Virus record (IMG/VR): IMGVR_UViG_3300005758_000578
Span: 32,001-96,000 of that record
DNA: 64,000 nucleotides
Source: a virus
Direction: 5' to 3' (one strand)
Under the pieces are notes generated by a model, which saw only the letters and a list, made by a program, of their open reading frames with translations, searched no databases and was not told the DNA's origin. This document shows, piece after piece, positions 7,678 through 34,820 of this stretch. Numbering within the stretch: the stretch's first letter is position 1; each line of letters opens with the position of its first letter. Made by a program: the position numbers and the translations under genes.

Positions 7678-10600
7678 TTATCTTCTAATTTGGTATTCTA
7701 CTCCTTTCAAAGCTTTAACTGGATCAATCTGACTACCAGTAAATCCAAATAAATATCCAAAGTCATTAAACACTTTAGGAGCACCTTCTTTTTGCCATGA
7801 GTAAGGTCCTACATCTCGTGTATAATAAGCACGGTTATCATTAGATAAAAGGTGAACTAAGTTTGTACCAAAGTCTTTGTACTTATCTACAACAGGTCCT
7901 AACGTTGGAGCACCACCATTATATACTAATCCTACATATTCTTTAGGATTCAAGAATGTAATAGTTTCTTGTCTTGTACCTAATGCTACAACAAGACCAT
8001 GATTAACTAACCAACCTCCAGCATTAAAATCATCAGATAATAAATCACCACTTCTTTGGCGCATTTTTTCAAATCTATCTTCATCATCTGGATCATACCC
8101 AAACAAGTAACCAATGATTAATGCAAGCATTGTAAGACTAATACCCTCTGTTAAAACTTTTTTAGCAGCATATGCCTCGTCATCAGTTAAATACATATTA
8201 CCGGATGAAGCTCTAGATACAAAAGACTTTAACAATTTTGCAAATGCTCTGTAATATCCTTCAGACATATCACCAGTTCTCATATTATATCTTAAAGGAC
8301 TAAATCTATTTACAAACATTCTTGTAAAGAACCTTCTTAATCCTGAGAACATTCTCCATACAGCATACTTATCAAGCATTACCTTATCCATCATTGAATA
8401 AGCACCTTGTAAGTCATTACTTTTTTCCTGTATAGTATTACGCATTGCTTTAAACTCAGCACCACCCGGAGCATAAGTTTCATCAATACCTGGTTTTAAT
8501 TTAATTACTCCAGTACCATCTTTCTCCCACGCATCTAAATAAGATATCATGTTTGTCTTACCATTAATAGTCTGCGGTACTTTTTTATATATCATTATAC
8601 CGGCAAACAAAGAAAGTGTACCTTCATTTTCTAACCACTTTCTTGGAGAAGTATAGATACCATGAGATATACCTTTACCCGCACCAAACATTAAACTATC
8701 TGCTAAGTCTGTACCAAAAGATCTTCCAAACTCAGAACCAAAACGTTCTTGGAATCTTCCTTTAATAGGATCAAAAATCTCAACTAATTGATAATCAATG
8801 CTTTTCTCACCTGGGTTATAGATATTAGCAGAGATATCTGTCATTATCTTTAAAGCTCTTGATTGTCCTTGTATGTAAGAACGTTTATTAAGATACTTAC
8901 CACCACCTGATTCAATAATCATTTGTGTAACAGCACCACCAAAGTTTTTAACTGCAGATGGTAAAACGTTAAATGCAAACATTCCAAATGAAGATTGTGA
9001 TTGTAAAATATCTACGGCTTTACTTAATGAAGTGGGTTCAGATAACCAACCTGCTTTAGTTTGTCCCTTAAACTCTCTTTCAATAAGAGTGTTGATTGCT
9101 TCAGCTCTTACATTCTTACCTTTCTTTGCAATAAAAGATTTAACATTATTAGTAACCCAGTTATAACCGTTTACTTTAGAGGTATCTTTAATAGCATTTT
9201 CAGAGTTATTTACAACTTTCTGTAACGCTTGAGCAATAGGATTTAATTCAATAAGTTTTTTCTGGTGCTCTAGTGAGAACATGTATTGCATTAAAGAGTA
9301 TGGTACATTTAATGATACCTGATCTACATCTAGTTTATATAATCCTTTTACAGGAATAGATGAGATCTCTTCATCAAACATGTCAGCTCTAACTAAGTTA
9401 AATGCATCATCATAGTTAAATCCTTGATCAAAATCATCTTGAGATTTACTTACAGCATCTTTAACTTGTTTAACAAAAGTCTTTACTTTCTCAGCACCTC
9501 TGTTTAAACTACCACCTACTAATTCACTTTTAAGCTTTCTAAATCTTGGTACATCTAGATACAATCTACTGTACTTAGTTTTATCTTCCTGGAAAAGAAG
9601 AGTGTACTTAGTAATAACATCAAGAACTTTTGCTTTATCAGGAGAATTCTTTTGTAGATCGTAATAAGCTTTGTTGATATAAGAATCATCCTTTGCTCCT
9701 TCAGCTACTGTTCTTGGTAACCAGTTACCGCGGTTATCAATGTGCACTCCTACTTTACGTTCTACTTTACCGGTAGTTTTATTATATCCAGTTCTGTATT
9801 CTTTCTTAACTACTCTTCTATAGAAATCCATAGTAGGTACTCTATTTACAGTGACCTCAGTAGTCTCACCTGTAGATGGATTTACATCATTATACGTATA
9901 AGTATTATAGTATTCTTCATCTGAAGGAATTGTTACATTCCAAACATACAATCTTTCATATACCCGCTCATCTTTTTTAGTCTTGCTGTTATACTTTTCT
10001 GTTTCAATGTGATTAGCAAGAAACCATTCTTTAAATTCAGGACTTGCTTTAAAGTATTTAGATAAGAATGCAGGTCTTAAGAAATTATCAGCATTGTCAA
10101 CATTAATCTCACTAACAGAGAAGTTAGCAAGTTTTGCTGGATCAATTGCTTCTAATACACTATTAAATGCAGATAAGTAATCATCAGTTGGTTCTTTAGA
10201 TTGCATATCAGCTAACTGACTGTATAGATTTAACAATGTCTTTTTAGTTAATCTATCTACAGCGCTTTCTCCTTTTAACTTATCTAATTCTTTAAACTCT
10301 TCTTTATCATTAATGGATGCTCTTCTGCTTTTAATTAACTTAGCTAACTCTATATATCTTTCAAATTGTAGTTTGCTTAAACCACTAAAGCCGGCCATGT
10401 TATCTTTAATCTGAAGAAGTTCTTTTTGTATTTCTTTTACTCTCTTAACTCTTTCTTCAGACATCTCTGATGCTACAATCTGACCATCAGCATTTCTAAA
10501 TCCAACTGAGATATCTATAAGTTCTTCCCAAAGTTTATCCTGTTGTAATTTTTTACTTACATCTTTTGGTAGTTTATCTACCAGAGCTTTGATCTTATCA

Positions 10601-13236
10601 AGAATTTGCATCTTGTCTTCATAGAACTTTTCATTAATAGAAGTTCTAGTATTAGACTTAACCCAGTCATCAACGTTATCTTTAAACTCTTGAGAATCAG
10701 ATAGCAATCCCTGGTCTAAAAGATCTTGCTTAAATTGATTTAATTTAAACTCAAATAATCCAGTGATCTCTTTACTTTCATAGAACTTACGGGACTCTTC
10801 TCTGTACTGTTTTTCTATCTTAGCCATCTCTAACTCATCACCTGTTTTAAGTTTACCACTCTCATCACGCAATGATGCTAATTGACTATACTTCTTCCAT
10901 AAGATTTTCTTTTCTTCAAAAGCCTCATCTTCTGTAAGATCCTCAAATACCCTTTGATCTATATCAGCAATATCAGCTAAGATATCTTGCTTTCTTTGAT
11001 ATATAATAGAACCTAAATCAGAGTCATAAATTTTCTCCTTAGCATAAAACTCTGGTATAAACTCATCATGCATATAATCACGAGAGAACTGTCTGTACTG
11101 TTTATTAAGAAGTCTTGCTTTCTCTAAGTCTCCAACTCTTTTAGCATCTTCTATATCAAACTGAAACTGACTTGTTACCTTTTCAAATGCTTTAAAAGGA
11201 TTAAGTAATACTAGCTTAGTAATAGTACTAGCATTACCATTCTCATCACGTACAATTACTTCCTGCTCAGTAACTAATTCTTTCATTAGTTCTGTGATAT
11301 TTTTATCAGAGTAACCGGCTTGTTTTAATGCTGGTAATAACTCCTGCAAGAAATCATCTTTATTCTTTTTAGCTTTTAATTCTACATCAGTGTAGGCATT
11401 ATCTAAGAATACTGAGAAACTAGCAATAATAGGATCTGGTGAACTTGCAAATGCTTCTACATAAGCAGATAATGCATTAACATCACCACGCATACCTGAC
11501 AAGTAATCATCAACTGTAGCACGGTTTAGTTTTAATCTCTCCCATTCTTGCTCTATCTCTTTTATTTGTTTTGCAGAAGCATTTTTAGATTTTAACGTAT
11601 TAAGTTTATTGGTAAAGTATGTATCTACATTTTTAGCCAAAGGCTCTATTTGTTCTGTTAATACACCACCAACACCTTTTTTATAAATCTCATTAATAAG
11701 TCTATCAGCTTGCTCTGCTTTCTTAGCCATCTTAGCAAATAAAGCAAACAAAGAACTATCTGTACGTAATCCAGAATCTGTTAAACCATTAATAGTTTCT
11801 TGAATAAATTTATTCCAGTTACGTAATAAAATATCATAATAGAATGTTTGATTAATAACCTCTTTAGTATCACCAAGAGATTTCATCTCAGCTAATTTAT
11901 CTACTATTCTATCTAGTAATACATCTGTTTGTAAAGAACTTCTTACAATTGCTTTAACCTGTTTCTCTCTTTTATCAACCTCATCCCTAAACTTCTTAAC
12001 TTTATCATCTACTGTAGTTGTTTCAGCAACACGTAAATTGTCTACAATATCTTTAAGAATAGATCTACCAGATTCTGTAGTAATAGTATTTACAAAATCA
12101 GAGTAGTTTTGGTTTGTTCTAATTCTATTTAACTGTGATCTAGAGTTAGAGAAAAATCTATTAACAACTTGGATAAGCGCATCTGTATTTACTTTATTCA
12201 GATCATTATATAAAGTCTCATTACTTCTAGCATATGATACTAAATCATCAGGTGTTATGATCTCAGTTGTAAGAATAAAGTTCTCACCCACTAACATATC
12301 AGCTAACTGATTAAGTGTGGTATCTACAGATAACTTCTCAATCTTTACTCCTTTACCAAATACTTTTCTGATTAATTGTTTTATAGCAAATAATAGATTA
12401 GAGATAAAAGAATTAAATCCAGGAGTAGAAGATATTTTATTAGCTTTTTGTACAGCTGCTTGTTCTAAGGCTCTTACAAATACTTCTTGAGCAAAGTTAG
12501 GATTAGTAATATCGTACTCAGGATACAGTTCTGTTACAGTATTTACAATTGCAGCACCCTCTGGTGTACTAATAATCTGATTGTATAGATTATTAAACAA
12601 ATCATAGTTACTTAAATATAAACTTCTAACTATAGGATGTGCATATTCATGCAATACATGATTTAGTTTAAAACCATTTTCAATAAAGTATACAGTGTCT
12701 TGATGATAGAACGCAGGTTCACCATTCCAGGGAGCAGTTGTATCTTTTGTAATCTCTGCAGCTTGCTCAGCAGAAATCATTTTATAATTAATACCTGTCT
12801 GAGATGCTAAGTTATTAGCAAACTTAGTTGCTATCTCTTGAGCTTTTACATTCTCTTGTAACTGTACAGATGGAAACAGACTATTTAAAAAGTCTTCATC
12901 AGCAACTCTATAGTAGTCAGGTGTTTCTTCAGTAATGTTATTTTTTCTTTTATACTCTTCCCAATAGTGATCAACAACATAACTAGGTGGATTAACAAAT
13001 ACTCTAGCTGTACCATCCCAGGTAATAAAATCAGCCATATTAGTTCTCCAATACTCATTTAATCCTAATACGGCTTTTGCAATAGATGCTGCGCCAGCTT
13101 TTGTGTTACCAGCTGCATTTACATAAAATGTAGTTAAACTATCTGTTGGAGATAAGAACTGTCCAACCTCTTTAGCTAAAGCTTTTTTGTACGTCTTTAG
13201 TACATCATTTTGTATATCTAATCTACACTTACTCAT
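7678..13236 (-). CDS. Giant cargo/ejection protein D with N-terminal zincin-like domain
   Basis: HEYAH (12637-12651) with downstream Glu (AQEVFV); largely helical; hydrophobic segment near C-terminus. Start MSKC at 13236 gives an ATGA overlap (ORF track starts at 13245). Confidence 0.8.
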   Translation of the reverse strand: MSKCRLDIQNDVLKTYKKALAKEVGQFLSPTDSLTTFYVNAAGNTKAGAASIAKAVLGLNEYWRTNMADFITWDGTARVFVNPPSYVVDHYWEEYKRKNNITEETPDYYRVADEDFLNSLFPSVQLQENVKAQEIATKFANNLASQTGINYKMISAEQAAEITKDTTAPWNGEPAFYHQDTVYFIENGFKLNHVLHEYAHPIVRSLYLSNYDLFNNLYNQIISTPEGAAIVNTVTELYPEYDITNPNFAQEVFVRALEQAAVQKANKISSTPGFNSFISNLLFAIKQLIRKVFGKGVKIEKLSVDTTLNQLADMLVGENFILTTEIITPDDLVSYARSNETLYNDLNKVNTDALIQVVNRFFSNSRSQLNRIRTNQNYSDFVNTITTESGRSILKDIVDNLRVAETTTVDDKVKKFRDEVDKREKQVKAIVRSSLQTDVLLDRIVDKLAEMKSLGDTKEVINQTFYYDILLRNWNKFIQETINGLTDSGLRTDSSLFALFAKMAKKAEQADRLINEIYKKGVGGVLTEQIEPLAKNVDTYFTNKLNTLKSKNASAKQIKEIEQEWERLKLNRATVDDYLSGMRGDVNALSAYVEAFASSPDPIIASFSVFLDNAYTDVELKAKKNKDDFLQELLPALKQAGYSDKNITELMKELVTEQEVIVRDENGNASTITKLVLLNPFKAFEKVTSQFQFDIEDAKRVGDLEKARLLNKQYRQFSRDYMHDEFIPEFYAKEKIYDSDLGSIIYQRKQDILADIADIDQRVFEDLTEDEAFEEKKILWKKYSQLASLRDESGKLKTGDELEMAKIEKQYREESRKFYESKEITGLFEFKLNQFKQDLLDQGLLSDSQEFKDNVDDWVKSNTRTSINEKFYEDKMQILDKIKALVDKLPKDVSKKLQQDKLWEELIDISVGFRNADGQIVASEMSEERVKRVKEIQKELLQIKDNMAGFSGLSKLQFERYIELAKLIKSRRASINDKEEFKELDKLKGESAVDRLTKKTLLNLYSQLADMQSKEPTDDYLSAFNSVLEAIDPAKLANFSVSEINVDNADNFLRPAFLSKYFKASPEFKEWFLANHIETEKYNSKTKKDERVYERLYVWNVTIPSDEEYYNTYTYNDVNPSTGETTEVTVNRVPTMDFYRRVVKKEYRTGYNKTTGKVERKVGVHIDNRGNWLPRTVAEGAKDDSYINKAYYDLQKNSPDKAKVLDVITKYTLLFQEDKTKYSRLYLDVPRFRKLKSELVGGSLNRGAEKVKTFVKQVKDAVSKSQDDFDQGFNYDDAFNLVRADMFDEEISSIPVKGLYKLDVDQVSLNVPYSLMQYMFSLEHQKKLIELNPIAQALQKVVNNSENAIKDTSKVNGYNWVTNNVKSFIAKKGKNVRAEAINTLIEREFKGQTKAGWLSEPTSLSKAVDILQSQSSFGMFAFNVLPSAVKNFGGAVTQMIIESGGGKYLNKRSYIQGQSRALKIMTDISANIYNPGEKSIDYQLVEIFDPIKGRFQERFGSEFGRSFGTDLADSLMFGAGKGISHGIYTSPRKWLENEGTLSLFAGIMIYKKVPQTINGKTNMISYLDAWEKDGTGVIKLKPGIDETYAPGGAEFKAMRNTIQEKSNDLQGAYSMMDKVMLDKYAVWRMFSGLRRFFTRMFVNRFSPLRYNMRTGDMSEGYYRAFAKLLKSFVSRASSGNMYLTDDEAYAAKKVLTEGISLTMLALIIGYLFGYDPDDEDRFEKMRQRSGDLLSDDFNAGGWLVNHGLVVALGTRQETITFLNPKEYVGLVYNGGAPTLGPVVDKYKDFGTNLVHLLSNDNRAYYTRDVGPYSWQKEGAPKVFNDFGYLFGFTGSQIDPVKALKGVEYQIRR

Positions 13237-14984
13237 AATTTGCAACTGTTGTATGTTTCATCTTGAACTTCAGGATATCCTATTGGGGCATATGTATTAA
13301 CGGGCTCTGCATTAGCATCTATATTAAAACTAGTATTACCATCTGCAAAAGAAAAATATCTATATCCTGCATTTGTAAATTTAAATGCATTATTAATAAA
13401 AGGATCATAGTAAATTAAATCTACTATATCTTTTGATCTACCCATTTTAATTTTAGCTTCAAAGATTTGTTTCCAGTCTTTAAAGTAGTTATCAAATATT
13501 TCAGGATAGTTACCTTCTGCAGTACGCACAAAGAAATCAAAAGTATAAGCTACTATATTACCTTTATCATCATACTGTTTATTACCAGCATCATCTAATA
13601 TCGGTATAATTCCTTGCACTGTTACTGTCTCCTGATTAGCTTTATGATCTTTACCAATAAATGCATTAGTCATTTCAAAGGTCGGATATTTTTCAGTAAA
13701 TGCTTTATACCAATTTTGTTGCTCAATAAACTCTTTTACCTTACTGGTAAACTCATTCTGATCTTTAATATAAATACCTTTATGATGTAGCCAACCATAA
13801 AACTCATCATAGTTCTCTTCTTTCTGAACAGTACCTAATTCTATAACGCCATCAATATCATGGATATCTTCATCTATAACTCTATAGACAGTACCATAAT
13901 ATCTTAATACCATAGAACCACTTAATTTATAACCCATGTTTGGATTATTAAGCATAAAATCTATAATTGATTTAGCTACAGGATCTTTAGATAAAGTCTG
14001 ATTATACTTTTTTAACTCTAATTGTTTAAATCCTAATTGACTATTTTTATCAGGAACTAATAAAGAATCACCAACTCTTTCTACACCACGGGTAAAAATA
14101 TTATAATTACCCTTATAAATATCATCTACTAAATCTAGTAATCTATCCTCTAAATCTTGCTGATTAAGTTTATCAAACTTATTTCTAAATAAAGACAAAA
14201 AGAAATCATGGATTTTATACCATAACTTTTTTAGAGCACTAGATTGTTTATCATATGGATTATACTTAAAACCTCGTTTTTCAAAGTATGCTTTATCTAC
14301 ATCACCATTACCTCTTTCACTTCTAACAAATGTAGTTAAATCTCTTCCATAAAAATCTGTAAGACCTTCAGCAATAAAATCTATAATTACTTGTTTATGT
14401 GCAGTAAAATTAAAATTGCTATCTGCATACATATCAACAAGATACGGGGGTAGATCACTATCTTTATCTAAATTATCTTTAGTAAAGATATCTTCTATCT
14501 CAGTAGTATCTTCTAGTTTTAATCTATATGATCTATATAGATCTTTATACTTAGACCAGCTTTTAATATTAAACCAAAGATTATTATAGAGCTCGCTTTT
14601 TTTACCTAAGAAACTAAGCATAATATTAGCTACTTGTTTAGGTACAATTTCTTCAGCACCATCTCTAATAGCTAGATACTTTTGTAATAAATCAAAACCC
14701 GCTAAAGGATTACCTGGAACATTATTTAATAATGCTTCTGCAACATTACCACCTTCAACTTTAATATTTAGTGCTCTTACAAAATCTAATAATATTTTAT
14801 TAGTTCCTGCAGATAACTTAGGATTAAGAGGAATAGAGTTATTTTTTCTATTTACAATATTCTTATATACAGTAGCTGGAGGATTACCCTCAAACTTATC
14901 CCAAAGATAAGTAGCCATCTTTGTACCTTGGAATGCTTCTAACCTTTGAAAGTCAGGATCTGATTTTATAGGACAGGTTGCCAT
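13233..14984 (-). CDS. Cargo protein C: degenerate zincin-like domain plus Pol-beta-superfamily nucleotidyltransferase domain
   Basis: YKLSGSMVL...IHDIDG (GS plus DxD), later FDFF and AKIKMGRSKDIVDL. Start MATCP at 14984 overlaps the upstream stop (TAATG). Confidence 0.7.
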   Translation of the reverse strand: MATCPIKSDPDFQRLEAFQGTKMATYLWDKFEGNPPATVYKNIVNRKNNSIPLNPKLSAGTNKILLDFVRALNIKVEGGNVAEALLNNVPGNPLAGFDLLQKYLAIRDGAEEIVPKQVANIMLSFLGKKSELYNNLWFNIKSWSKYKDLYRSYRLKLEDTTEIEDIFTKDNLDKDSDLPPYLVDMYADSNFNFTAHKQVIIDFIAEGLTDFYGRDLTTFVRSERGNGDVDKAYFEKRGFKYNPYDKQSSALKKLWYKIHDFFLSLFRNKFDKLNQQDLEDRLLDLVDDIYKGNYNIFTRGVERVGDSLLVPDKNSQLGFKQLELKKYNQTLSKDPVAKSIIDFMLNNPNMGYKLSGSMVLRYYGTVYRVIDEDIHDIDGVIELGTVQKEENYDEFYGWLHHKGIYIKDQNEFTSKVKEFIEQQNWYKAFTEKYPTFEMTNAFIGKDHKANQETVTVQGIIPILDDAGNKQYDDKGNIVAYTFDFFVRTAEGNYPEIFDNYFKDWKQIFEAKIKMGRSKDIVDLIYYDPFINNAFKFTNAGYRYFSFADGNTSFNIDANAEPVNTYAPIGYPEVQDETYNSCKL

Positions 14985-17900
14985 TAGCCACAAATTTCTT
15001 TTAATATTTCACCAATTGTATCTTCATCATATCCCATCTCTTCTAACATTTTAGAATTAATTGCAGATGCTGGATAAATATTACCATCAATCAAAGTTAC
15101 CTCTTTTTCTTTTACAACTTGATCCTCAGTATCAGGAGCACTATCTGGATCTTCTTCAAAGACTTGATTGATAGGTTGTACAGAATAAATATACTCTTTA
15201 AATTCCGGATCTTCTGCAAACACAGGATTTTTATATCCAAAGTTATAGTATAACTCTTTAAATAATTCCATGTAAGCTGCCTTATCAATATTAGGATCAT
15301 CATTTAAAATACCATAACCTTCAGTATTAAAGAGTAACGTTTTACCAGCCTCATATAATTCTATAAGAGAGGTAACCGTTTCCTCTACTAACTTCATGTT
15401 GTCAGCATTATTTGCAGCATTTAAATACTTAGGTTTACCAACAAATGATTCAAAAATAGGTAAGCCAATTGTAGTACCAGTTACTTTACTAGTATTACCT
15501 AAGTATGTATCTGAAGCAATAACATTAGTTCCGGTATTATCTTTAGCTTTACTATATACACCCACTAAGCCGGAATATCTATTTATTAACCCTACAGTGC
15601 GCATCTTACCATAAGAATAAGTATATACTCTAGGAGTTAAAGTTGAAGATGTTCCTTCAGGTAATTTAGGAATTTCATCGCCCATCTTTTCAATAGTATT
15701 ATCTACCACATAGTTTTTAAATCTATACTTAGTAATATTATTTCTAGAGTTCTGCTCATTAAACTTCTTATAGTATCTGTATAAAGCAGTATTACCTTTG
15801 TCACTCTCCAATACTTTAGTAAACTTATCAATGTTTTCTTTAATGATTTCTTTAAAGTTATTGCTAGATAAGATAGGAACAAAAGACAAGTATGATTTAT
15901 TCATACCGGACTGCATAAATCCAAAAATAGATAGCTTATTAAAGAACTCAGAAATCTCTCTATTAATAATAGGATCAGGATGCTTTTCTACATTTATATC
16001 TGATAATTCTTCAAACTGAGTATTCATATCCTCTAAGAAGTCAGTATCTTTTGTATCACCAGTTAAACGTAAATTTTTAATTGTTGCATTCTTAGTACCT
16101 GTCTTTATTTGTTGAGAATCATAAACAAGATAATCAAACAAGCTATAATCTCTATTTTCTATAAAGTTCTTTATATCTTCAAACTTATCTGGAAAACTAG
16201 TAGGACCAAAGAACATTGACTTAAGATTATATACATTATGTAATGCATCTTCAACAAGTCCTTTTTCATAGATATCCTCTGAAAAATCACCTCTATCTCT
16301 GGTAGCACGTAAGTACTCTCTCTCTAAAACAAAAGCAGTGTATTGTTTTTCAGAACTGAATAAAGGTATAACATCTGTACGTTTATCAAATGGTAACTTT
16401 GCTAAACCGGTTTCTTCATACTCAGCCTTAGAATAAGTCTTATTATTATATTCTTCACGTAGTTTAGCTCTATCTAAATAGATTTTACCTTCATAGTATA
16501 CAGCACTTCTTTTAAGACCCCTTACTTTTTCTACATCAATAGTATCACTTACAGCATATCCTTTATAATCTTTTACTGTGTTAATATCTACAGACCCAAT
16601 ACTATTTTGGATAATAAACTGCAGAAGATCATTTCTAAATAAATCCACAAATGAGTCTACATCTCCATACTCCTCACGAATAATATTGTAATTATTATTA
16701 ACTATATCAGTTAAATAAGTATTTATAGCATTACTTGCTCTTAATGGGAAGTAATCTTTAAATACATTTAAGATATAATCTTGTATAAAGAATGGAGCAA
16801 TAGAAGATTCATTCTCTAACTTAACTGTAATTTCATTAGGTAATCTACTACCTTCTTCTAACTGTTCTAACTTACTTAAACGACTCTTTGCTTGATATAA
16901 GTTACCAGACTTTTTAGTATCAACGTTAGTAGAAGAAGATATTTCCCGCATTACTTGCGCCTGATCTTCTATTTCTAAGAAATGTATAAATGCTAATTTA
17001 GCTAATGGACTTCTCTTGTATTGTTTTTGTACAATCTCTTTTATATTATCATCAGAGATAGCATAAACATTATAAGCTTTGGTCATAATGTCTACGGCTG
17101 CAGTTAAAGATTTTTTAGAACCTAATGGATTCTTTCTAGTATTTGCATTATATAGTTGCTTTAGTAAGAAAGGATCTTTTAATCTCTTCTTTAACTCACG
17201 TTTATCATCTTCATCAAATATACCATACTTGTCAATTACATACTGTTTGGCTTTAAACTTTAAGAAACCAGGACCTTTAGCACTATCTCCAGATGTATCT
17301 AGTGATTTAGTATACATACCATTTAATACTCGGTATGTAGATATATATTCTTTAATTAAAGGTTGTGATAAGAAATATGCAGCTGTTTTAACATCAACAC
17401 CAGCTTGTAACATGTATAACAAAGTAGGTATTAACTCATAAATAGCATTCATATCAAATACCCATGAATCTTTTTCAATATCCACCCAACCGTTCATAAG
17501 CTGAGAGATTACATCAGAGATATAAACAGCTGAATCTTTAGAGTTAAGATCTGATAAAGATATCTTACCGTCCTCTGTTTTATTATGTTTAAACAAAATA
17601 CGATTCTTAGCAGTTCTTTGTTTTCCTTTATTATCTAAGAAATTGTATGTCTTATCTAAATATGCACCAACACGGTTAAGAAGTACTGAGTATTTGTTTG
17701 ATACAGCACCAATACCCAATGTTAATTTACCAATGTTATTAGATTCATGCTTATACAAGTTATTTTCTGTCTCAAACATTCTTGTTGGAGAAACAGTAAA
17801 GGCAGAGTCTTGGAACTCAGCTTTAGCTCTTGGGTTATAGTCTCTATTAAACTGTGCTAATTCATCTGCAATTGGTTTAACAATATCTGTTTCGTTAGGA

Positions 17901-20900: not shown

Positions 20901-23900
20901 AATGCTTCTCTTAAAGTTGGGTTATCATCTAAATAAAAACCTACAGCTTTTAAAAAGTCAAATACATTAAGTTTATTAATTGATGAAAAGTCTTCAAATA
21001 CCTTATCTATATTCAAGATAGGTGTTGATCCCTTCTTTCTAATTACATACTTAGATCGGTTAGTTAAAAATTTAGAATTAAAACTATTAACAATTTTTGT
21101 TGTATCACTAGTAGCTCTTTGAATATATGTAGAAACCTTAGTTGATGCAGATTTATCTTCCTCTTCTTCAATAGATGTAGAAAGTCTGTGTTCTATAATA
21201 GGTGTTACAGTTTTATTAAATGTTTGAGCAAATCCTAACCAACGTTTAAAATTAGCGTTATTAGTTTGAGATTGTTCAGGATCTCCTAATTTAGCAATTA
21301 ACTGAGCTGCTTCTGGAAAACTTTCTTGCAATCCAACTAACTTAGTATAGATCTCATCAAATGTATTTGAGTTAATTAAAGTTTTAGATATTGTACTCCA
21401 AGCTTTACCAAATTCAACAAGTTTATTAAAACCTAATCTATTCTTAATAGGTTCCCCATTTGCTTTTACTTGATATAAACTCTTAACCATATAAAGAGCT
21501 TGTTTAGAAGCTAACTCTTTTAATGATTTATCATTACCTGAACGGTCAAAACTATCTACTCCTGGATCTGATTTGTCTTCTTCTGCTTCAAGAACTTTTG
21601 CTTCAAAAGCTAAGTATTTAGATTTTTGTCTATGATAAGCAATAACACCTGACTTTTCTTTACCGGAAATAACATTATCTAAATCACCAAAGTTATTAAT
21701 AGCATACTCTAGTATCCGGATATTGTTTCTATCTATAGTATTTACACCATCAGGATCATTCTCAACCCTAGCAATTGTATCATTTAAAACATCTTGAAAA
21801 TACTGCTTAGTATTTTTATATAAGAAGTCTAATGCTCTTTTATCACTATAGATTGCTGAAATATTTAATCCAGTAGCATTAATAATTTCTGAGAAAGCAC
21901 CATCAACTGATTCATTAATTAATCTGCTATCAGATAAACTGATACTGGGTTCTTCTTCATTTAATGGATCTATACCTCTGTATAAGTTACCAAACTGCAT
22001 GTTCTCTACAGAGTAAGCATACTCAAATAGATTACCCAATCTTAAGTTATCATATAACTCTTTTACTAATGGTACAACAGTAGGATCTACAATATCAGTT
22101 TGACCGGTGAAGAAAGCTTTTACAATACGCCATAATTTCTGGAAGATACTTTCATTAGGCTTAACAAGAATTTTCTTACCATCAGATAATACATAACCTC
22201 TGAAGTCCTCAGCCAAGTATTCTTCTACTTGCTTATCAGTTGCATTAGCTAAATACTTAACCCCTTTTCTTACTGAATCATATAAACTTTGCTTTTGATC
22301 CTTTGTTAATAGTAACTGTGAGAATGCATGCCATGCTTCATGATATAAAGTAGTGTAATCTTTATTACCAGCTTTTGTAAATAATGTAATACCGCTAGAA
22401 CTAAATAGTCCTAATGCATCTGAGTTAGTTAAAGCAATTGCTTCATTAACCGGGATCATTGTAGAAAGCTTTACTTTCTCACCATCTACCATAACCTCTA
22501 AAGATCCATACCAGTCTTTAATCTTTTTAATCTCTTCAGGTGTAGTATTTACAGGTTTAAATCCGGCTCTCTTCAAACTATTGTTAATCTCATTAACAAG
22601 GTCCATATCAAATGTACCTTTAAAACCAGAAGGTGTAGTATTTACATTCTGATTCTTAATAATAGTTTTAGGTTTGGCTTTTACTTTAGTTTTAGTTTTT
22701 TTACCCTCTTCTTCAACTGGTACCTCTTCTTCCTTTTTCTCAGTTGGATACATTTCTTCTAATGCATCAATAGTAAATTCATACTGCAAACTGGGGTTAA
22801 AGGTTTTAATGGTACCATCATTACGCAACACGGTAAACACTACAGTATTCTGTCTTACAAAATCATTATAATCAATCTTAGTCTTTGTAAATTTGCCTGA
22901 CTTATAATTAGGTAAATCTATCTTACCATCAATATTATCTTTTGATATATTTATATAAGCGGTAGCTAACTGTTCTGCTATAAAATCTTCATCTGCTAAA
23001 TCCGGATTTTCAGAATCATATATTACATCCTTATCTGAATAGATACTTAAAATTGGTTTCTTATTAGTGTCATCGTAACTAATATTAAAAGTACCGTCAT
23101 TAACGTTATAGATATTCTCCAGTATACCAAATTTTACAGCATTTGATACTTTAGGATCCGCAATAAGTTTTGCAAGATTCTTAGCTAATTCATTAGATGT
23201 CTTAGTAGGAAATACTTGTACAAGATCTCCAAACTTATCTAATTTTAAAAATGTTTTACCAGAGTTGTCAAACTCTATATTACTAATAGTATCTGAAGTA
23301 ATGTTACTTACCTCAGTTAATTTAACCGGTGTATCAGATAATAAGTTAAAGCCAGATCTACCACCAACTATCTTTAATGGTAAAGCTAAACTCTTATTAC
23401 CTATAAAGGTTTTAATAAATTTATCTACTAACTCTACTTCTTTAGCTCTTTGATCCTCTAATTGTTTTCTTAAAACTTCTACATCTGGAATTTCCACTCC
23501 GGCTCTAGCAGCTTTAGCAATAGTTCTTTCTACTAGTTCATCTATAGGTGCAAGACTAGTCTCACCATTCTCTACAAATATGAACTCTCTTTTACCCTTA
23601 TTAGTATTAGGAGTGATGAAATCAGTTACGGGAATAATAGCACCTTCTGCTTCATCTTGACCTTCAATATTTGTAATATAACCTCTACTATTTACAAAGA
23701 TTTTCTTGTATCCATCTTTAGTAAAAGTAGCAAAAGATAACTGCGTAATTCTACTACCTCTAGATGTAATTGTATCAGTAGGAATCATATAGATACCTTT
23801 GATTTTAGTACCATTAGATGCAGTTATCTCTATTTGTTCAGCACTATCAAGATTTAGTTTACTTAGTCTATCTAGAATAGAGCGCATAAATGCATAGGTA

Positions 23901-24430
23901 GCAATCTTTTCAGGATCTGGATCTGCCTCACCTGTTAACTCACCTTCTTCATTTACCTCTTCTTCTTGACCAGTAGTAACTAAACCAGTAGTATGTTTTG
24001 CCTGGAATTCTATATCACTACTTAATTGTGTAGCTCTCTCTAATTGAGAACTAATAATCCCGGCTTTCTTTCTTACTTGCTCTAGTCTTTCTGGACTTAA
24101 TTCTTTTACTGCAAGATATTTTTCTACAACTGTAATATCTTCAAAGCTATCTCTAAGATCTAAAATATCATCAGTACTAATTTGATTATCTCTAAAATGC
24201 TTACGAATATTAGGATTCTTATTAACTATAGTGGCAATAATTCTTGGAACCAATTGTATGTAAGTTAATCCTAAACTAGTATCATTACTAGCAGCAACTA
24301 CTTGCTCATAAAATTGATTAATATAATCTTTTAAATTATAGGGTGTTTTGTTATCTGTAATAACAGATAAGTCTTTAAAAACTTTAGCGTAAAACTGCTG
24401 CTGTTGTAATGCGGATAGTGAACAATTCAT
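14984..24430 (-). CDS. Virion-packaged single-chain DNA-dependent RNA polymerase (crAss-type), cargo protein B
   Basis: 3148 aa; VRIPVQGLNS...KSGGDFDIDKL (DFDID at 18110-18124); GDGQGW, HKFS, KSGSK, NGWVDIEKD; N-terminal zincin HEAWH (22328-22342) with EEYLAEDF. Confidence 0.92.
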   Translation of the reverse strand: MNCSLSALQQQQFYAKVFKDLSVITDNKTPYNLKDYINQFYEQVVAASNDTSLGLTYIQLVPRIIATIVNKNPNIRKHFRDNQISTDDILDLRDSFEDITVVEKYLAVKELSPERLEQVRKKAGIISSQLERATQLSSDIEFQAKHTTGLVTTGQEEEVNEEGELTGEADPDPEKIATYAFMRSILDRLSKLNLDSAEQIEITASNGTKIKGIYMIPTDTITSRGSRITQLSFATFTKDGYKKIFVNSRGYITNIEGQDEAEGAIIPVTDFITPNTNKGKREFIFVENGETSLAPIDELVERTIAKAARAGVEIPDVEVLRKQLEDQRAKEVELVDKFIKTFIGNKSLALPLKIVGGRSGFNLLSDTPVKLTEVSNITSDTISNIEFDNSGKTFLKLDKFGDLVQVFPTKTSNELAKNLAKLIADPKVSNAVKFGILENIYNVNDGTFNISYDDTNKKPILSIYSDKDVIYDSENPDLADEDFIAEQLATAYINISKDNIDGKIDLPNYKSGKFTKTKIDYNDFVRQNTVVFTVLRNDGTIKTFNPSLQYEFTIDALEEMYPTEKKEEEVPVEEEGKKTKTKVKAKPKTIIKNQNVNTTPSGFKGTFDMDLVNEINNSLKRAGFKPVNTTPEEIKKIKDWYGSLEVMVDGEKVKLSTMIPVNEAIALTNSDALGLFSSSGITLFTKAGNKDYTTLYHEAWHAFSQLLLTKDQKQSLYDSVRKGVKYLANATDKQVEEYLAEDFRGYVLSDGKKILVKPNESIFQKLWRIVKAFFTGQTDIVDPTVVPLVKELYDNLRLGNLFEYAYSVENMQFGNLYRGIDPLNEEEPSISLSDSRLINESVDGAFSEIINATGLNISAIYSDKRALDFLYKNTKQYFQDVLNDTIARVENDPDGVNTIDRNNIRILEYAINNFGDLDNVISGKEKSGVIAYHRQKSKYLAFEAKVLEAEEDKSDPGVDSFDRSGNDKSLKELASKQALYMVKSLYQVKANGEPIKNRLGFNKLVEFGKAWSTISKTLINSNTFDEIYTKLVGLQESFPEAAQLIAKLGDPEQSQTNNANFKRWLGFAQTFNKTVTPIIEHRLSTSIEEEEDKSASTKVSTYIQRATSDTTKIVNSFNSKFLTNRSKYVIRKKGSTPILNIDKVFEDFSSINKLNVFDFLKAVGFYLDDNPTLREALENALLDRKSKETYIAFDYLIEALKKAKENKTIITNPIKFFRDPKQGNQSGYVNKILTLQAKYSSSDFSTGIMNPEGNMEYETSLRNSLSQIIDGLNKVTKLSDMLEDPQFNYLRAYHPDINPYSKHSYIMKSLFDSNGNRRKDVILSLENLSGVRRDFNGITVEGIKTNKLNKYDKFMFDVHAIILGKTPELPRHASKSSSYGVGMNKYYGEAGVDNLIVPIKDVARYGHDSAMPIILNYLSAELERIWYIKNIPSLQNVDSFKKNGTKIMAFDSVLSAATKAKLYELVDNAESIDDIVYSEELEKDIKKDSGKYFNNQIRTNYKIWTQISAVTGSVLLSPEIRTKIAEETRIGKGLDKTNKYANDPQAQLELINEVYTYNSWFNNFETQLFYGDASQFNHEKEEFPKRNASIASTGDFAILDNYTIDYLNNTSNNTYAEKEGLPKLRFDSAIKTTVLNDIEPESVYYSHYKQLLVSLGVSEERAEKILKPYKKITEGDGQGWITFDFYRNYLRSLNKWSDIQEDLYNDVINNPDSVDPKKVAEFFPVLKASYYGPLKTEKLNASGLHKFSLMPLIPTVIKGTNLEQFHKQLLEQGISYALFKSGSKISNITLEDGTIPNMYTDATKRTLYTGEYAINGINLNFFKNQLDIAPYFKGKVTLSSQLRTIIETNLYANGKPLKKEYKSIVERYEKAIDNYVKFYKQKLFKEVGLEFSADGKLIKGDPKDLIKAIQKELVRLEVPEHQMDILDVNEDGSLKYDFDSIINSNTIEKQLVSIIERKIVRPTVKGEQLVQVSSSGFENPKFTNPSKEDLLKYGTNGLAFYDVVNGKITPMQVKVALQGDFLKLLLTTHVDGKKVGTLERLNEMLKDKQWRDLNVETIRMVGVRIPVQGLNSIEYMEVGEFLPAEAGSIVIVPTELVAKSGGDFDIDKLSILMPNISISQTTDTIQESTYKQLLDEVFNKEASMTADDSTIRGIENEIIKSMIGIMEIKENFVQLITPNETDIVKPIADELAQFNRDYNPRAKAEFQDSAFTVSPTRMFETENNLYKHESNNIGKLTLGIGAVSNKYSVLLNRVGAYLDKTYNFLDNKGKQRTAKNRILFKHNKTEDGKISLSDLNSKDSAVYISDVISQLMNGWVDIEKDSWVFDMNAIYELIPTLLYMLQAGVDVKTAAYFLSQPLIKEYISTYRVLNGMYTKSLDTSGDSAKGPGFLKFKAKQYVIDKYGIFDEDDKRELKKRLKDPFLLKQLYNANTRKNPLGSKKSLTAAVDIMTKAYNVYAISDDNIKEIVQKQYKRSPLAKLAFIHFLEIEDQAQVMREISSSTNVDTKKSGNLYQAKSRLSKLEQLEEGSRLPNEITVKLENESSIAPFFIQDYILNVFKDYFPLRASNAINTYLTDIVNNNYNIIREEYGDVDSFVDLFRNDLLQFIIQNSIGSVDINTVKDYKGYAVSDTIDVEKVRGLKRSAVYYEGKIYLDRAKLREEYNNKTYSKAEYEETGLAKLPFDKRTDVIPLFSSEKQYTAFVLEREYLRATRDRGDFSEDIYEKGLVEDALHNVYNLKSMFFGPTSFPDKFEDIKNFIENRDYSLFDYLVYDSQQIKTGTKNATIKNLRLTGDTKDTDFLEDMNTQFEELSDINVEKHPDPIINREISEFFNKLSIFGFMQSGMNKSYLSFVPILSSNNFKEIIKENIDKFTKVLESDKGNTALYRYYKKFNEQNSRNNITKYRFKNYVVDNTIEKMGDEIPKLPEGTSSTLTPRVYTYSYGKMRTVGLINRYSGLVGVYSKAKDNTGTNVIASDTYLGNTSKVTGTTIGLPIFESFVGKPKYLNAANNADNMKLVEETVTSLIELYEAGKTLLFNTEGYGILNDDPNIDKAAYMELFKELYYNFGYKNPVFAEDPEFKEYIYSVQPINQVFEEDPDSAPDTEDQVVKEKEVTLIDGNIYPASAINSKMLEEMGYDEDTIGEILKEICG

Positions 24431-24434
24431 ATTA

Positions 24435-27400
24435 TTAACAACCTATATTATTAAAGAAATCATTATTTACATCTTTCTCAGACTTATTATTAGTCTGATC
24501 TTCAAGCTTTTTAGTAGCTTCTTCGTTATCTAAGAAGTCATCTATATTTTGTGAGTTGGTCTCAATAATCTTCTTCTCTTCTGCTGAAGGAGAAGGAACA
24601 TCTTTAGTACCAACTACTACATTGGCTTCTGTATCGTATAATGATTTTACCATTTTTGAGAAATCTTTCTTTAAAACTGTAATGCGTTTATTAGCATCTT
24701 TTGCCGGAGTCATACGCTCACCATACAAAGGTACTACAACTAATTTAGTACTTGTAACTTTCTCAACCAAACCAAACTTATTATCTCCAAATACTAATAC
24801 ATCTCCCTTTTTAACATTCTCATATTTTACAGACTTACTTAACTCTTGTTTACGAGACTCAATTGCTTGATTAATAGTATCAATATTAGTTGGATCTTCA
24901 GCTAGTAAATCTAAATCTAATTCTTCTAACATAGTATCTAATTCACTAAGTGACTTAGCTTTACTAATTGTATCTAGGATTGGTTGTAATGGATCAGTAA
25001 CTACTTCAGTTTCTGTAACTGGCTGTTCTAAAGCAACTAGTTCTGCGTTATATTTTACATCATCACTTTTAATGCCTACATCCATTTTACCAAACTGGGT
25101 AGTATAAACACTTACTACACTACTAAATCTTGAACTGGTAGGTGCTCTTTTTACTTTTATTACTGTAATCCTTGAGTCATCATCTAATCCTTCAAATATT
25201 TCTGCATAATCCTCGTCTAATGGAAACTCTTCTTTAAATTCTTTAAGAGTCATTGATTTACCTCCCAGTGTCTCAGTAGTATCTCCAACATTTGCTTCAT
25301 ACTCTGTGACACTTACTAATGTACCATCTAAATCTGTAATAGAATTAGTCTGACTTACGGTTCTTGTTTGACCTTTTCTATTTCCTTTTTCTACAATTTC
25401 AGAAGATATTATTTTTGTAGTTCTTTTTTCTATATTAGCTCTAGCATCTGTAGGTTGAGTAGAAGTAGGTTTAGCAGGTTCAGCTTTAGGTGCTTCTGCT
25501 GGTTTTGCTGGAGCTTTCTTTTCATTAAATGCTTTAACGTCTGCAGCATTCTCAGGATCTTTAAAGAACTTACTAATAATTCTTCTAACAGATGCTGTAC
25601 GTAAAAATCTATCTAATGGTAATTCATCTTCTCCATCAGCTTCTCTAGCAGAATTTTGTTGAGCTAATGCGGATCTGATTAAACCTTGTAGCTTAAGTGG
25701 TAATCCATTAAACTGTTTAACTGATTGAATTAAAGGTACACCCTCTTCTTGTTGAATCTCATCGGATACTGCAGGTTGCTCTTCTACTACCTCTTCTTCT
25801 GTAACGACTTCTTCAACTGGAGCTTCCTCTGTTTTTTCTTCAGTTACAATACCATCAAACTCGTTAATGATATTAAAGATGAGTAAAGACCTTGGATCAG
25901 TTTTATCAAACTCTCTATCTGAATTAAAATCTATAAATACTACATCTAGATCATTAATTACAGTCTTTACAAATTCGTCATAGTCTTTACTTACATCTTT
26001 AGGTAAAGAAGATAATTTTATACCAAAACCTCTATCAGCTAAAAACTGAATAAAGTCTCTAAGTTTTACAGAGTTAATGAAAGCCTTTCTAGCTTTTTGC
26101 ATATAGGCTACTTGTTTTTCTTGCCTATACTTTTGCTGTTCTATAAGTCTATTTACATAATTATAGAAAGTTTGAGGATCATATAATGAGTTTAGATTTT
26201 CTGTAAATATATTTACATCATCTGCTAACGAATAGTAATCCGTTACAATATTATAAGCTTCTTCAGATTGACCTTTAGAGATAGTTGTTCCGGCTTCCTG
26301 AGCTAGAGTATTGAAGTACTTAACAAAAGCATCTTTTAAAAATCTTTTATTCTTTAACTCTTGAGGATCAGATACATCTCCAACTTTTTCAAGATTTGTT
26401 TTATATAATTCTAAAGCTTTCTTCTTAGCTTTTTTATAGTTAAGAATCTTTAAAGTTTCTTTGTCTGTTGAACCAGTTAATGATTTGATTTCACTATCTA
26501 ATAAGTCTAACTCTTGTTCAAGATTATTAGAGTTTAATAAAGGTGTGATATCTGAATATGTTAACTTACCAATTGTACCAATAGCAGTAAGTCTATCGGT
26601 AAGATCACCCATTCTTTTTTGGGCCTGTTCTCTACCATGTAAACTAAATACAGCAACTTTTCTTGCCTCTTCAAATGCTTTATAGTTTATTACTTCTTTA
26701 ACATATGCATCTTTAGTTTCAGGATCTGATAGATTAGTTCTTCTAAATTTATTAGGATTAAAAGGATTTTTATAATCTGAAAATTCTTTATACTGTTCTT
26801 TAATTTGCTTAGCTCTTTCAATACTAACATCTAATATTTTTAAAGCTTGTTCATCAGTTACATCTTCAGTTAAATCAAAGGCTTGCTTTAATTCATCACC
26901 CTTCATATCCTTTAAATTCTGTAACTTTTCTATTAATAGATCAAACTTACCAGATTCTAATGCTGTATAGATACTGTTAAATCGGGCCATATCTTTTAGA
27001 TCATGGAAGGCTTTTTCATCAAAGTTCTTCCGGGCTTCTACCATATCTGTACCTAATCTAACTTGTGTTAGTAGATCTTCAATATCTAAGGTTAAAACCT
27101 TCTGACCATTCTTAATAGCATCATCTAATTCGCTAACTATATTTTTAAATCTTTCTTGTTCTGCTTTATATAACTGATTGTACTTTTCAGGATCATTCTT
27201 TATATAGTTATAATAGATATTAGAACCTGCTCTTCTTGATACGTTAGCTAAATTACCAGCAATACCAGTAAGACCACCCATTAAGAATCCTGATGCAAAC
27301 ACTTCAAGACCTTGCATAGATGCTTGTTTCTTAGTATTCTCATAAGCATCAGCTAAGTAGATCATAATACCTCCAGCTTCTGGAGTATCATATAATCTAT

Positions 27401-28847
27401 CATAATAATTTTTAGAGGCACCTGCTACAACTTCTTGAGAAATTTCTTGAAGACCTTCAGATAGATTTCTCTTAAAGTATTGAGCTCCAAAACTTAAATA
27501 CTCTTTTGGTTTTAATATTTTCTTAGCTGCTTCTTTTGCAGTTAATACTGTAGCACCTTCTGTACTTGCAATGATTTGTTCTCCAGTTAGTGCTGATCTT
27601 GCAATAACATCATTTGTTGGAGCATTTAACATTGCTGATTTGCCTTTAAATAAGTTATTAAAAGTAATAGCATTAGTTAAATATATAAGAGGAGTATTAA
27701 TAGCACTTGTAGTAAAACCAGCATCACTAGCTAAACTATAAATTCTATTCATCTCTTCTTGCTCTGGATAATATCCATTCTCTGCAACAAATTGATTTAT
27801 CTTATCATCAATAAACTCATTCTTAACAGCACCACCTTCCATAGAAGCTTCAGCAACTGTATATCCAACTTGCTTAAGATCTAATATAAAATCACCAACA
27901 CCTCTTACAGCATTAGCATAACCAATCACATTGTCTCCAGCATTTATTGTATTTCTAACATTTGATAATGTTCTTGGTACAAGCGCTTCTGCAACACTCT
28001 TAACACCTTGACCAAGACGTGTAGCATCTAAACCTTTAATAGCACTGTATGCTTCTCTTGCACCATTAGCAGTAAATAACTTACGCATATTAGCTAAGTC
28101 TTTAGCTGCTTTAACTGTTTTAGCAGAACTAGCTCCCAAAGCTGCTGGTAAAGTAGCACCTTCTGTTAGGGCAACACTACCCGCAATTACAGCTTCAGTT
28201 AATAAATAGTCACCAACAATACCTGCTACAAATCCAGATTGTAATAATAAGTTAGAGGCAAACTGTGTAGCACCACCTTTAGTACTACCATACTCTGCCA
28301 TAATCTGAGCAAACTCATCAGCTGCTTTTTCATCAGTCATTGAGAAATCACCGGTAAGCATCTCACCCATTCCTCTATAACTAGACTTTACTACAGATAA
28401 TCCTAAAGCTGGAACACCTAGTAATCCTCTGCCAAGATCTTCATACCAAGATCTATTTTGATTATAGATCTCATCATTATTAGATAAAGGATCAAAACCT
28501 AACTTATAGAAGTTATCATTGTCATTGTAATATCTATTAAAGTTAGTTTTCTGATATCCGGATTGAAAAGTTTTAATCTTAGACTTTTCAAAAACAAGAT
28601 CAGATTCAGTAATAGGAGATGATAAAACATCCTTAGTAATATCAAAAGGATTATTTTTACTATAATTTACTTCAAATCCTCCGGTAGGAACTGCTGGTAT
28701 ACTAACATCTTCATTGTAAGGAACCAACTGTGCACCAGACGGTAAAGAATTCATACCATCTACAAATACCATATCTGGTCCTTGTAATGAATTAGGTATA
28801 CCGGGCTCTATACCTGGAGGTGGTAAAATGTTTTCAAAATCCGCCAT
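24435..28847 (-). CDS. Giant cargo/ejection protein A with possible membrane-inserting segments
   Basis: 1470 aa; Gly/Ala-rich hydrophobic stretches, SEGLQEISQ, FASGFLMGGLTG, long helical region; directly upstream of the RNAP. Confidence 0.75.
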   Translation of the reverse strand: MADFENILPPPGIEPGIPNSLQGPDMVFVDGMNSLPSGAQLVPYNEDVSIPAVPTGGFEVNYSKNNPFDITKDVLSSPITESDLVFEKSKIKTFQSGYQKTNFNRYYNDNDNFYKLGFDPLSNNDEIYNQNRSWYEDLGRGLLGVPALGLSVVKSSYRGMGEMLTGDFSMTDEKAADEFAQIMAEYGSTKGGATQFASNLLLQSGFVAGIVGDYLLTEAVIAGSVALTEGATLPAALGASSAKTVKAAKDLANMRKLFTANGAREAYSAIKGLDATRLGQGVKSVAEALVPRTLSNVRNTINAGDNVIGYANAVRGVGDFILDLKQVGYTVAEASMEGGAVKNEFIDDKINQFVAENGYYPEQEEMNRIYSLASDAGFTTSAINTPLIYLTNAITFNNLFKGKSAMLNAPTNDVIARSALTGEQIIASTEGATVLTAKEAAKKILKPKEYLSFGAQYFKRNLSEGLQEISQEVVAGASKNYYDRLYDTPEAGGIMIYLADAYENTKKQASMQGLEVFASGFLMGGLTGIAGNLANVSRRAGSNIYYNYIKNDPEKYNQLYKAEQERFKNIVSELDDAIKNGQKVLTLDIEDLLTQVRLGTDMVEARKNFDEKAFHDLKDMARFNSIYTALESGKFDLLIEKLQNLKDMKGDELKQAFDLTEDVTDEQALKILDVSIERAKQIKEQYKEFSDYKNPFNPNKFRRTNLSDPETKDAYVKEVINYKAFEEARKVAVFSLHGREQAQKRMGDLTDRLTAIGTIGKLTYSDITPLLNSNNLEQELDLLDSEIKSLTGSTDKETLKILNYKKAKKKALELYKTNLEKVGDVSDPQELKNKRFLKDAFVKYFNTLAQEAGTTISKGQSEEAYNIVTDYYSLADDVNIFTENLNSLYDPQTFYNYVNRLIEQQKYRQEKQVAYMQKARKAFINSVKLRDFIQFLADRGFGIKLSSLPKDVSKDYDEFVKTVINDLDVVFIDFNSDREFDKTDPRSLLIFNIINEFDGIVTEEKTEEAPVEEVVTEEEVVEEQPAVSDEIQQEEGVPLIQSVKQFNGLPLKLQGLIRSALAQQNSAREADGEDELPLDRFLRTASVRRIISKFFKDPENAADVKAFNEKKAPAKPAEAPKAEPAKPTSTQPTDARANIEKRTTKIISSEIVEKGNRKGQTRTVSQTNSITDLDGTLVSVTEYEANVGDTTETLGGKSMTLKEFKEEFPLDEDYAEIFEGLDDDSRITVIKVKRAPTSSRFSSVVSVYTTQFGKMDVGIKSDDVKYNAELVALEQPVTETEVVTDPLQPILDTISKAKSLSELDTMLEELDLDLLAEDPTNIDTINQAIESRKQELSKSVKYENVKKGDVLVFGDNKFGLVEKVTSTKLVVVPLYGERMTPAKDANKRITVLKKDFSKMVKSLYDTEANVVVGTKDVPSPSAEEKKIIETNSQNIDDFLDNEEATKKLEDQTNNKSEKDVNNDFFNNIGC

Positions 28848-31423: not shown

Positions 31424-31433
31424 TATCTATATT

Positions 31434-31451
31434 ATAAATATAACAAATATA
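31434..31451 (-). promoter_or_regulatory. Possible promoter(s) for the distal cargo genes
   Basis: TATATTTG (31444-31451) and a late-motif variant TATATTTAT (31434-31442) in a 54-nt gap. Confidence 0.4.
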
Positions 31452-31477
31452 AAGTTAAACTATTAAACCTTTAAGAT

Positions 31478-34816: not shown

Positions 34817-34820
34817 TGCA

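Follow-up and report, generated by a model that had tools for sequence, protein, structure and literature searches.

Terminal cysteines of giant cargo proteins in crassviruses suggest a head-to-tail linked polymerase module

Crassviruses are the most abundant phages in the human gut, and to our knowledge it is not known by what means their cargo of about 0.8 MDa of protein, among it the polymerase with which infection starts, is packaged and injected. The present analysis concerns a block of four consecutive genes in a stretch of 64,000 nucleotides (nt), called the window in the following, which comprises positions 32,001 to 96,000 of the IMG/VR virus record IMGVR_UViG_3300005758_000578. The genes encode the giant proteins A, B, C and D, of which B is the virion RNA polymerase (RNAP). 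An earlier note on this DNA (the original prediction) had claimed that their few cysteine (Cys) residues are confined to termini which face a neighbouring gene, and that these form disulfides between A and B, B and C, and C and D. Are such Cys a rule of the phage order, and what could they connect? From the pattern of Cys it is predicted that the proteins of the polymerase module move as a single thread held together by disulfides and equal in function to the fused polyproteins of other crassviruses, which could be checked in the cultured phages phi14:2 and crAss001. With a probability of about 0.68, in our estimate, the termini dock at the three junctions and each dock is stapled by a disulfide, so that the virion would contain A-B-C-D as a single linear thread.

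The virus record has a length of 112 kb and an estimated completeness of 94%; open reading frames (ORFs) and Cys were determined by script. Together, A to D contain 6 Cys in 7,053 amino acids (aa), each of them at most four residues away from a terminus facing the neighbouring gene (Table 1), and the outer ends, i.e., the N-terminus of A and the C-terminus of D, have none. As the Cys content of the remaining ORFs in the window is 1.5% (156 in 10,406 aa), about 106 Cys would be expected in A to D; the probability that six randomly placed Cys land one per facing end is about 2e-17. A Cys-free background is seen in the three ORFs at the upstream side of A, and in the related loci described below those plus-strand ORFs which comprise 300 aa or more and do not belong to the chain carry 18 Cys in 43,718 aa. 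The gene junctions are tightly coupled, with a 4-nt gap (A/B), TAATG (B/C) and ATGA (C/D). The original prediction had described the six Cys, the outer ends without Cys, the three Cys-free proteins and the three junctions from the letters alone; the script count and the sequence are in agreement with it, and all six codons were located.

Table 1. Positions in the window of the cargo genes, their Cys codons and selected motifs (strand -, minus strand).
Feature	Position	Strand	Remarks
Protein A	24435..28847	-	1470 aa, first chain member; sole Cys is Cys1470, the last residue (ends NNIGC)
Cys1470 codon of A, TGT	24438..24440	-	
Protein B	14984..24430	-	3148 aa, virion RNA polymerase; Cys3 and Cys3147 only (starts MNC, ends EICG)
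Cys3 codon of B, TGT	24422..24424	-	
Cys3147 codon of B, TGT	14990..14992	-	
HEAWH of B, zincin-type motif, residues 697-701	22328..22342	-	From alignment of B homologues
DFDID of B, catalytic RNAP motif, residues 2103-2107	18110..18124	-	From alignment of B homologues
Protein C	13233..14984	-	583 aa from ATG, middle member; Cys4 and Cys581 (starts MATC, ends SCKL)
Cys4 codon of C, TGT	14973..14975	-	
Cys581 codon of C, TGC	13242..13244	-	
Protein D	7678..13236	-	1852 aa from ATG, last member; sole Cys is Cys4 (starts MSKC)
Cys4 codon of D, TGT	13225..13227	-	
HEYAH motif of D, residue 196	12637..12651	-	
Three cargo-type ORFs, 855, 1112 and 752 aa (2,719 aa)	28856..37079	-	Cys-free; upstream, outside the chain

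Searches of Pfam and PHROGs with A to D found no family. The assignment of B as virion RNAP, already made in the original prediction, follows from tblastn matches to gp66 of phi14:2 (E value 8e-19) and to the RNAP of crAss002, at about 23% identity, together with the conserved SGSDFDIDK (residues 2101-2108), which contains the catalytic DxDxD motif of two-barrel RNAPs. In the alignment of B homologues (A1) most columns of this motif are invariant, among them all three aspartates of DFDID (D2103, D2105, D2107). The ORF order, with three Cys-free cargo ORFs followed by A, B and C/D, is repeated in 73 loci. By homology to phi14:2 and crAss001, A to D of the window phage would be present in the virion and ejected: cargo homologues were detected by mass spectrometry in virions of crAss001 (PMC10172136), and the genome annotation of phi14:2 records the same type of detection for its cargo proteins.

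A profile-guided scan of IMG/VR yielded 75 loci, mostly with 25-33% identity to B, of which 73 were analysable; 70 of them had the strict RNAP motif and formed 49 sequence clusters. One grammar describes the chain in all 73 loci: a first member with Cys at the C-terminal end only, n members with Cys at both ends, and a last member with Cys at the N-terminal end only. Cys residues are present on both sides of 138 of the 139 junctions. A C-terminal Cys occurs in 0 of 61 complete last members, and an N-terminal Cys is absent in 52 of 53 complete first members, the upstream partner of the lone exception being outside the locus. Over 503,283 aa, 264 terminal Cys were counted versus 22 internal ones. 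Conservation of the facing pairs across crAss-like cargo operons, including those which gain or lose a gene, had been named as a check of the original prediction, and was found; the rule holds across the phage order.

The individual proteins conform to the same grammar. Homologues of A (P0082-P0118) have a single Cys, 0-3 residues from the C-terminal end, and in 41 aligned C-terminal regions of A (mean identity 15%) this Cys is the sole invariant column. Homologues of B (3,100-4,650 aa) nearly all contain exactly two Cys, one at position 3-5 and one 0-6 residues from the C-terminal end. For D homologues of 1,800-2,900 aa, down to 22% identity, a Cys at position 3-5 was present in 39 of 40, mostly as the sole Cys. 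A profile search was also carried out in a library of 1.84 billion protein representatives, and the N-terminal representatives of B were clustered at 50% identity. Among the matches listed, a Cys was located at position 3-7 in 142 of 149 new N-terminal representatives of B, the remaining seven resembling miscalled or truncated starts, and both terminal Cys were present in 99 of 107 full-length representatives. Overall, Cys is located at positions 3-7 from the N-terminal end and 0-9 from the C-terminal end, with no fixed flanking catalytic residues; position 2 is never Cys (N-terminal representatives of B and terminal peptides of the loci). An extra Cys near the C-terminus of P0029 is absent from its 73-74% identical relatives L007 and L008. 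The C-termini of P0104 and P0155 end with EIGRAHV, which we take to be a translated Illumina adapter, so that these are presumably contig-end artefacts and not true exceptions. As to the neighbouring residues, the motifs of facing ends seem to go together in the terminal peptides of L009-L083: after a B end of type DPFKC the next N-terminal end is of type MxC[EQDS], and after CKL or CF it is mostly MxxCPN; shared ancestry confounds both apparent pairings.

The Cys pair follows the splitting and fusing of genes. Protein C had been considered an optional wagon inserted between B and D. This was not borne out, since C and D are colinear with the single D-type protein of L068 (2352 aa): residues 1-564 of C align to residues 1-563 of the latter, with 41% identity, and residues 131-1847 of D to residues 594-2348. 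Judged by these alignments, C is the split-off N-terminal module of a D-type protein and not a foreign insert; the chain of the window has four members because a D-type protein was split into C and D. At the position equivalent to the C/D break, the protein of L068 contains no Cys. Extra middle proteins were found also in L031 (655 aa), L052 (396 aa), L054 (304 aa), L073 (506 aa), L075/L079 (about 170 aa) and L082 (289 aa); including C of the window, they have both terminal Cys in every case, and no further Cys in all but one. They are not foreign inserts either: the middle protein of L031 matches the C-terminal part of B from L022, that of L052 matches the N-terminus of D from L048, and those of L054 and L082 consist of a D-type N-terminal part joined to a B-type C-terminal part.

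The reverse case is represented by fusions. Three proteins of the RNAP block are fused in some crass-like phages (bioRxiv 10.1101/2020.03.07.982082, citing Yutin 2018), with the same set and order of modules as in the window, and in its function a chain linked by Cys would be equal to such a polyprotein. The modules of the window are separate ORFs with stop codons, whereas the fusions of A and B in L058 and L080 are continuous and without Cys at the junction: the fusion in L058 (4665 aa) has zero internal Cys, and that in L080 has two, both in the RNAP core and away from the junction. The A/B boundary in these two proteins was set by synteny and the offset of the HExxH motif; BLAST failed to place it, A being poorly conserved. 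The top 150 matches of the search in the representative library contained no fusion of A and B. The Cys pair thus occurs where the polypeptide is interrupted and is absent where it is continuous, as one would expect of a pair that takes the place of a peptide bond. Small ORFs between B and D were observed in L057 (17409-17762), L061 (11711-12361), L080 (19792-20286), L073 (10024-10638) and L052 (21952-22542); these have internal Cys and lack the terminal pattern, and probably are non-virion or mobile genes which are skipped by the chain.

Cultured crassviruses possess the same grammar in three giant virion proteins each, compared to four in the window. In phi14:2, the sole Cys of gp67 is its last residue (1797), gp66 contains Cys3 and Cys2179, and gp65 has Cys3 only; gp66 is homologous to B of the window and shares its DFDID motif. 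In crAss001, gp47 has its sole Cys at residue 2339 of 2341, gp50 contains Cys5 and Cys2404 plus one internal Cys, and gp49 has Cys5 only. The gene for gp47 is located on the opposite strand and is convergent with those for gp50 and gp49. Gene adjacency and coupled translation, to which the original prediction had pointed, are not required, as gp47 is apart from gp50 and yet keeps its C-terminal Cys. A nucleotide signal at coupled junctions is therefore excluded. In crAss002, gp32 ends with FVCS. In the same genome (L084, MN917146; 17193-17300), an in-frame MSCTPSN was noticed 32 codons past the annotated start of gp33 and after a hairpin behind gp32; the annotated start is probably wrong, and a start at MSCTPSN would fit the rule of an N-terminal Cys.

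Would the facing termini be able to meet? For a prediction of the complex, the last 350 aa of A and the first 400 aa of B were used, each with its own alignment of 41 rows, in three runs and with three controls. The score of the A-B complex was 0.68 (median of three runs) versus 0.02 for the best control; the mark which was applied is attained by 58 of 80 solved complexes and by 2 of 110 mismatched pairs. The agreement of contacts between the runs was at least 52%. The predicted interface comprises, on the side of A, residues 300-350 of the modelled piece, including 347-350 with Cys1470, and, on the side of B, residues 2-23, including Cys3, as well as 43-72, 97-100 and 123-126. The closest predicted contacts (residue 344 of the A piece with residues 12-16 of B, and 347 with 9-12) indicate, in this model, antiparallel helices by which both ends are united. 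The C-terminal helix of A is thus predicted to dock onto the N-terminus of B, with both Cys in the interface. Modelling of a C-terminal tail with the next N-terminal domain, as had been suggested, thus predicts a dock for the pair of A and B.

A resolved example is available from a different phage. In the cryo-electron microscopy structure of the cyanopodophage A4, the C-terminal helix of gp27 is inserted into gp26, and a disulfide connects Cys1715 of gp27 with Cys5 of gp26 (PMC12002296). In the genome of Anabaena phage A-4L, gp27 (1717 aa) and gp26 (1114 aa) are encoded by consecutive genes, and the bonded Cys is the sole Cys of each protein. As in the window, these are consecutive giant ejection proteins which are otherwise Cys-free and have their Cys at facing ends, 2 residues from the C-terminal end in gp27 and at residue 5 in gp26, and the dock predicted for A and B is of the same kind. 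There is thus at least one phage in which this grammar goes along with a disulfide that was resolved. A4 (family Saffermanviridae) has one link between two proteins, without RNA polymerase, whereas the window has three links in series, and the rule is order-wide and follows gene fission and fusion. Phage N4 (Schitoviridae; L087) also ejects a giant virion RNAP together with helper proteins, and its gp50 (the RNAP, 3500 aa), gp51 (644 aa) and gp52 (150 aa) are all Cys-free; unlike in the window, there are no terminal Cys and hence no tether based on Cys. Exclusion of Cys would therefore be general for ejected proteins, and the terminal pairs a special feature.

A literature search found no description of the terminal Cys pattern of Crassvirales. 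The words "cysteine" and "Cys" are absent from the preprint on the RNAP of phi14:2 (bioRxiv 10.1101/2020.03.07.982082), the atlas of crAss001 gives disulfides for the portal vertex and the tail only (PMC10172136), and the paper on A4 (PNAS 2025, PMC12002296) mentions its bond as one detail of the structure and states no rule. The original prediction had assumed that nothing of this type was described; for Crassvirales that still appears to be so, and for a single link A4 is a precedent.

Taken together, the comparisons speak strongly for a head-to-tail link by which the C-terminal Cys of each protein is connected with the N-terminal Cys of the next. In the mechanism which we propose, A, B, C and D would be packaged cargo proteins; the C-terminal helix of each would dock onto the N-terminal domain of the following protein, and each joint would be stapled by a disulfide formed from the terminal Cys of both partners. 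About 7,050 residues would thereby be united in a linear thread, which would correspond to the single fused polyproteins of other crassviruses. Other Cys would be excluded so that wrong bonds cannot form. Likely uses could be equimolar co-packaging and an ordered exit through the tail, and the links would be reduced in the host cytoplasm. The claim of the original prediction that disulfides join A-B, B-C and C-D into a thread is thus well supported as far as the link is concerned, by the grammar, the gene breaks, the predicted A-B dock and the analogy to A4; the bond, as well as ejection order, equimolar packaging and reductive release, is inferred.

Several points weigh against such a thread. 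Virions are assembled in a reducing cytoplasm, and many crassviruses inhabit the anoxic gut. A thioredoxin-fold protein was not found in the 112-kb genome, and a search for an Erv1-type oxidase was without match, as it was in its control genomes. A disulfide between cargo proteins has been observed in no crassvirus, and cryo-electron microscopy of crAss001 left the cargo unresolved (PMC10172136). The A-B complex is a model and not a measurement, with modest values of the predicted local distance difference test (pLDDT; 56-63, for the partner at least 56). The rule is relaxed in some gut lineages, where several internal Cys occur: the gp33 product of crAss002, from its proposed MSC start, has six more Cys beyond the N-terminal one, and gp059 and gp060 of cr50_1 have two internal Cys each. 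Finally, a phmmer search with gp26-gp29 of A4 against all chain proteins yielded no match at E <= 1; the proteins of A4 are thus without detectable homology to A to D, and the precedent therefore is an analogy only.

These points could suggest that the termini dock but that their Cys are free thiols or bridged by a metal, the chain being non-covalent and Cys merely a preferred residue of the interface. A docked interface is indeed predicted, and the reducing cytoplasm and the oxidase which was not found (although the search controls also had no match) would agree with this explanation; we regard it nevertheless as unlikely. With one thiol per side and no conserved histidine, aspartate or second Cys nearby, the metal site would be poor, a free Cys in the interface does not explain the purge of every other Cys, and the like arrangement in A4 is a resolved disulfide (PMC12002296). 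Alternatively, the terminal Cys might bond elsewhere, for example to a component of portal, capsid or tail, or between two copies of one protein, without forming a head-to-tail chain. Virions of crAss001 are rich in structural disulfides, resolved in the tail and the portal vertex (PMC10172136), which would speak for this possibility; it would however explain neither the missing Cys at the outer ends of first and last members, nor the loss of the pair in fusions and its presence at splits, nor the predicted dock of A and B; it appears quite improbable.

Still less credible is a role of the Cys as nucleophiles, in a thioester-based ligation or self-cleavage, instead of as disulfide partners. 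They are always a few residues inward from the end and never at position 2, and zincin-type motifs exist in B and D, which may be taken in its favour; however, A to D contain no intein, Hint or protease-like Pfam domain, the position of the Cys is variable and not accompanied by fixed catalytic residues, and the fused forms do without Cys. Practically negligible, finally, is the explanation by chance or as a by-product of nucleotide signals at coupled junctions. The junctions of the window are tightly coupled, as such signals would require, but gp47 of crAss001 has a C-terminal Cys even without its gene being next to that of gp50, and the Cys persist where proteins share 20-30% identity, are encoded by TGT as well as TGC, and vary in their spacing. 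A nucleotide motif or chance was rejected on the strand of gp47, the probability estimate given above and the grammar of the 73 loci. Two further candidates were rejected as well: the lipobox of bacterial lipoproteins, as the Cys at 3-7 follows right after the start methionine with no signal peptide of 15-25 residues, and an intein or split intein, as A to D had no such Pfam match and beyond the Cys there are 0-6 residues and no domain.

If the disulfide-linked thread exists, it would explain the extreme depletion of Cys and the free splitting and fusing of cargo genes, and also in what way the proteins might be kept in equal amounts and ejected in a fixed order; a single structural detail of the cyanophage A4 would become a general principle. 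A more far-reaching proposal can be offered only tentatively and may well not hold: the Cys-stapled joint could be a portable plug-and-socket connector in a redox-released, modular delivery train, possibly common to unrelated podophages such as A4. Any payload could then join the ejected thread if its N-terminal end provides a socket of the D type and its C-terminal end a plug of the B type, and crassviruses could add, drop, split or fuse injected enzymes (e.g., the nucleotidyltransferase-like module C), with packaging and ejection undisturbed. Of practical use for annotation is that the Cys rule exposes wrong start codons, as in gp33 of crAss002, and truncated gene calls.

Some observations concern possible functions of the chain members. 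A tblastn search of the phage collection with D gave one weak match only. Zincin-type metalloprotease motifs occur in two members, HEAWH in B and HEYAH in D; in alignment A1, H697 and E698 of the former are invariant and H701 is nearly so. For C, a profile search of the sequences in the PDB resulted in no match, and its structure model was poor (pLDDT 44). The motifs LSGS (residue 354), HDIDG (375) and GRSKD (515) of C are conserved and resemble those of nucleotidyltransferases of the Pol-beta type, and a lead from the protein Atlas points to the catalytic domain of a poly(A) polymerase (score 0.94), which is a candidate only.

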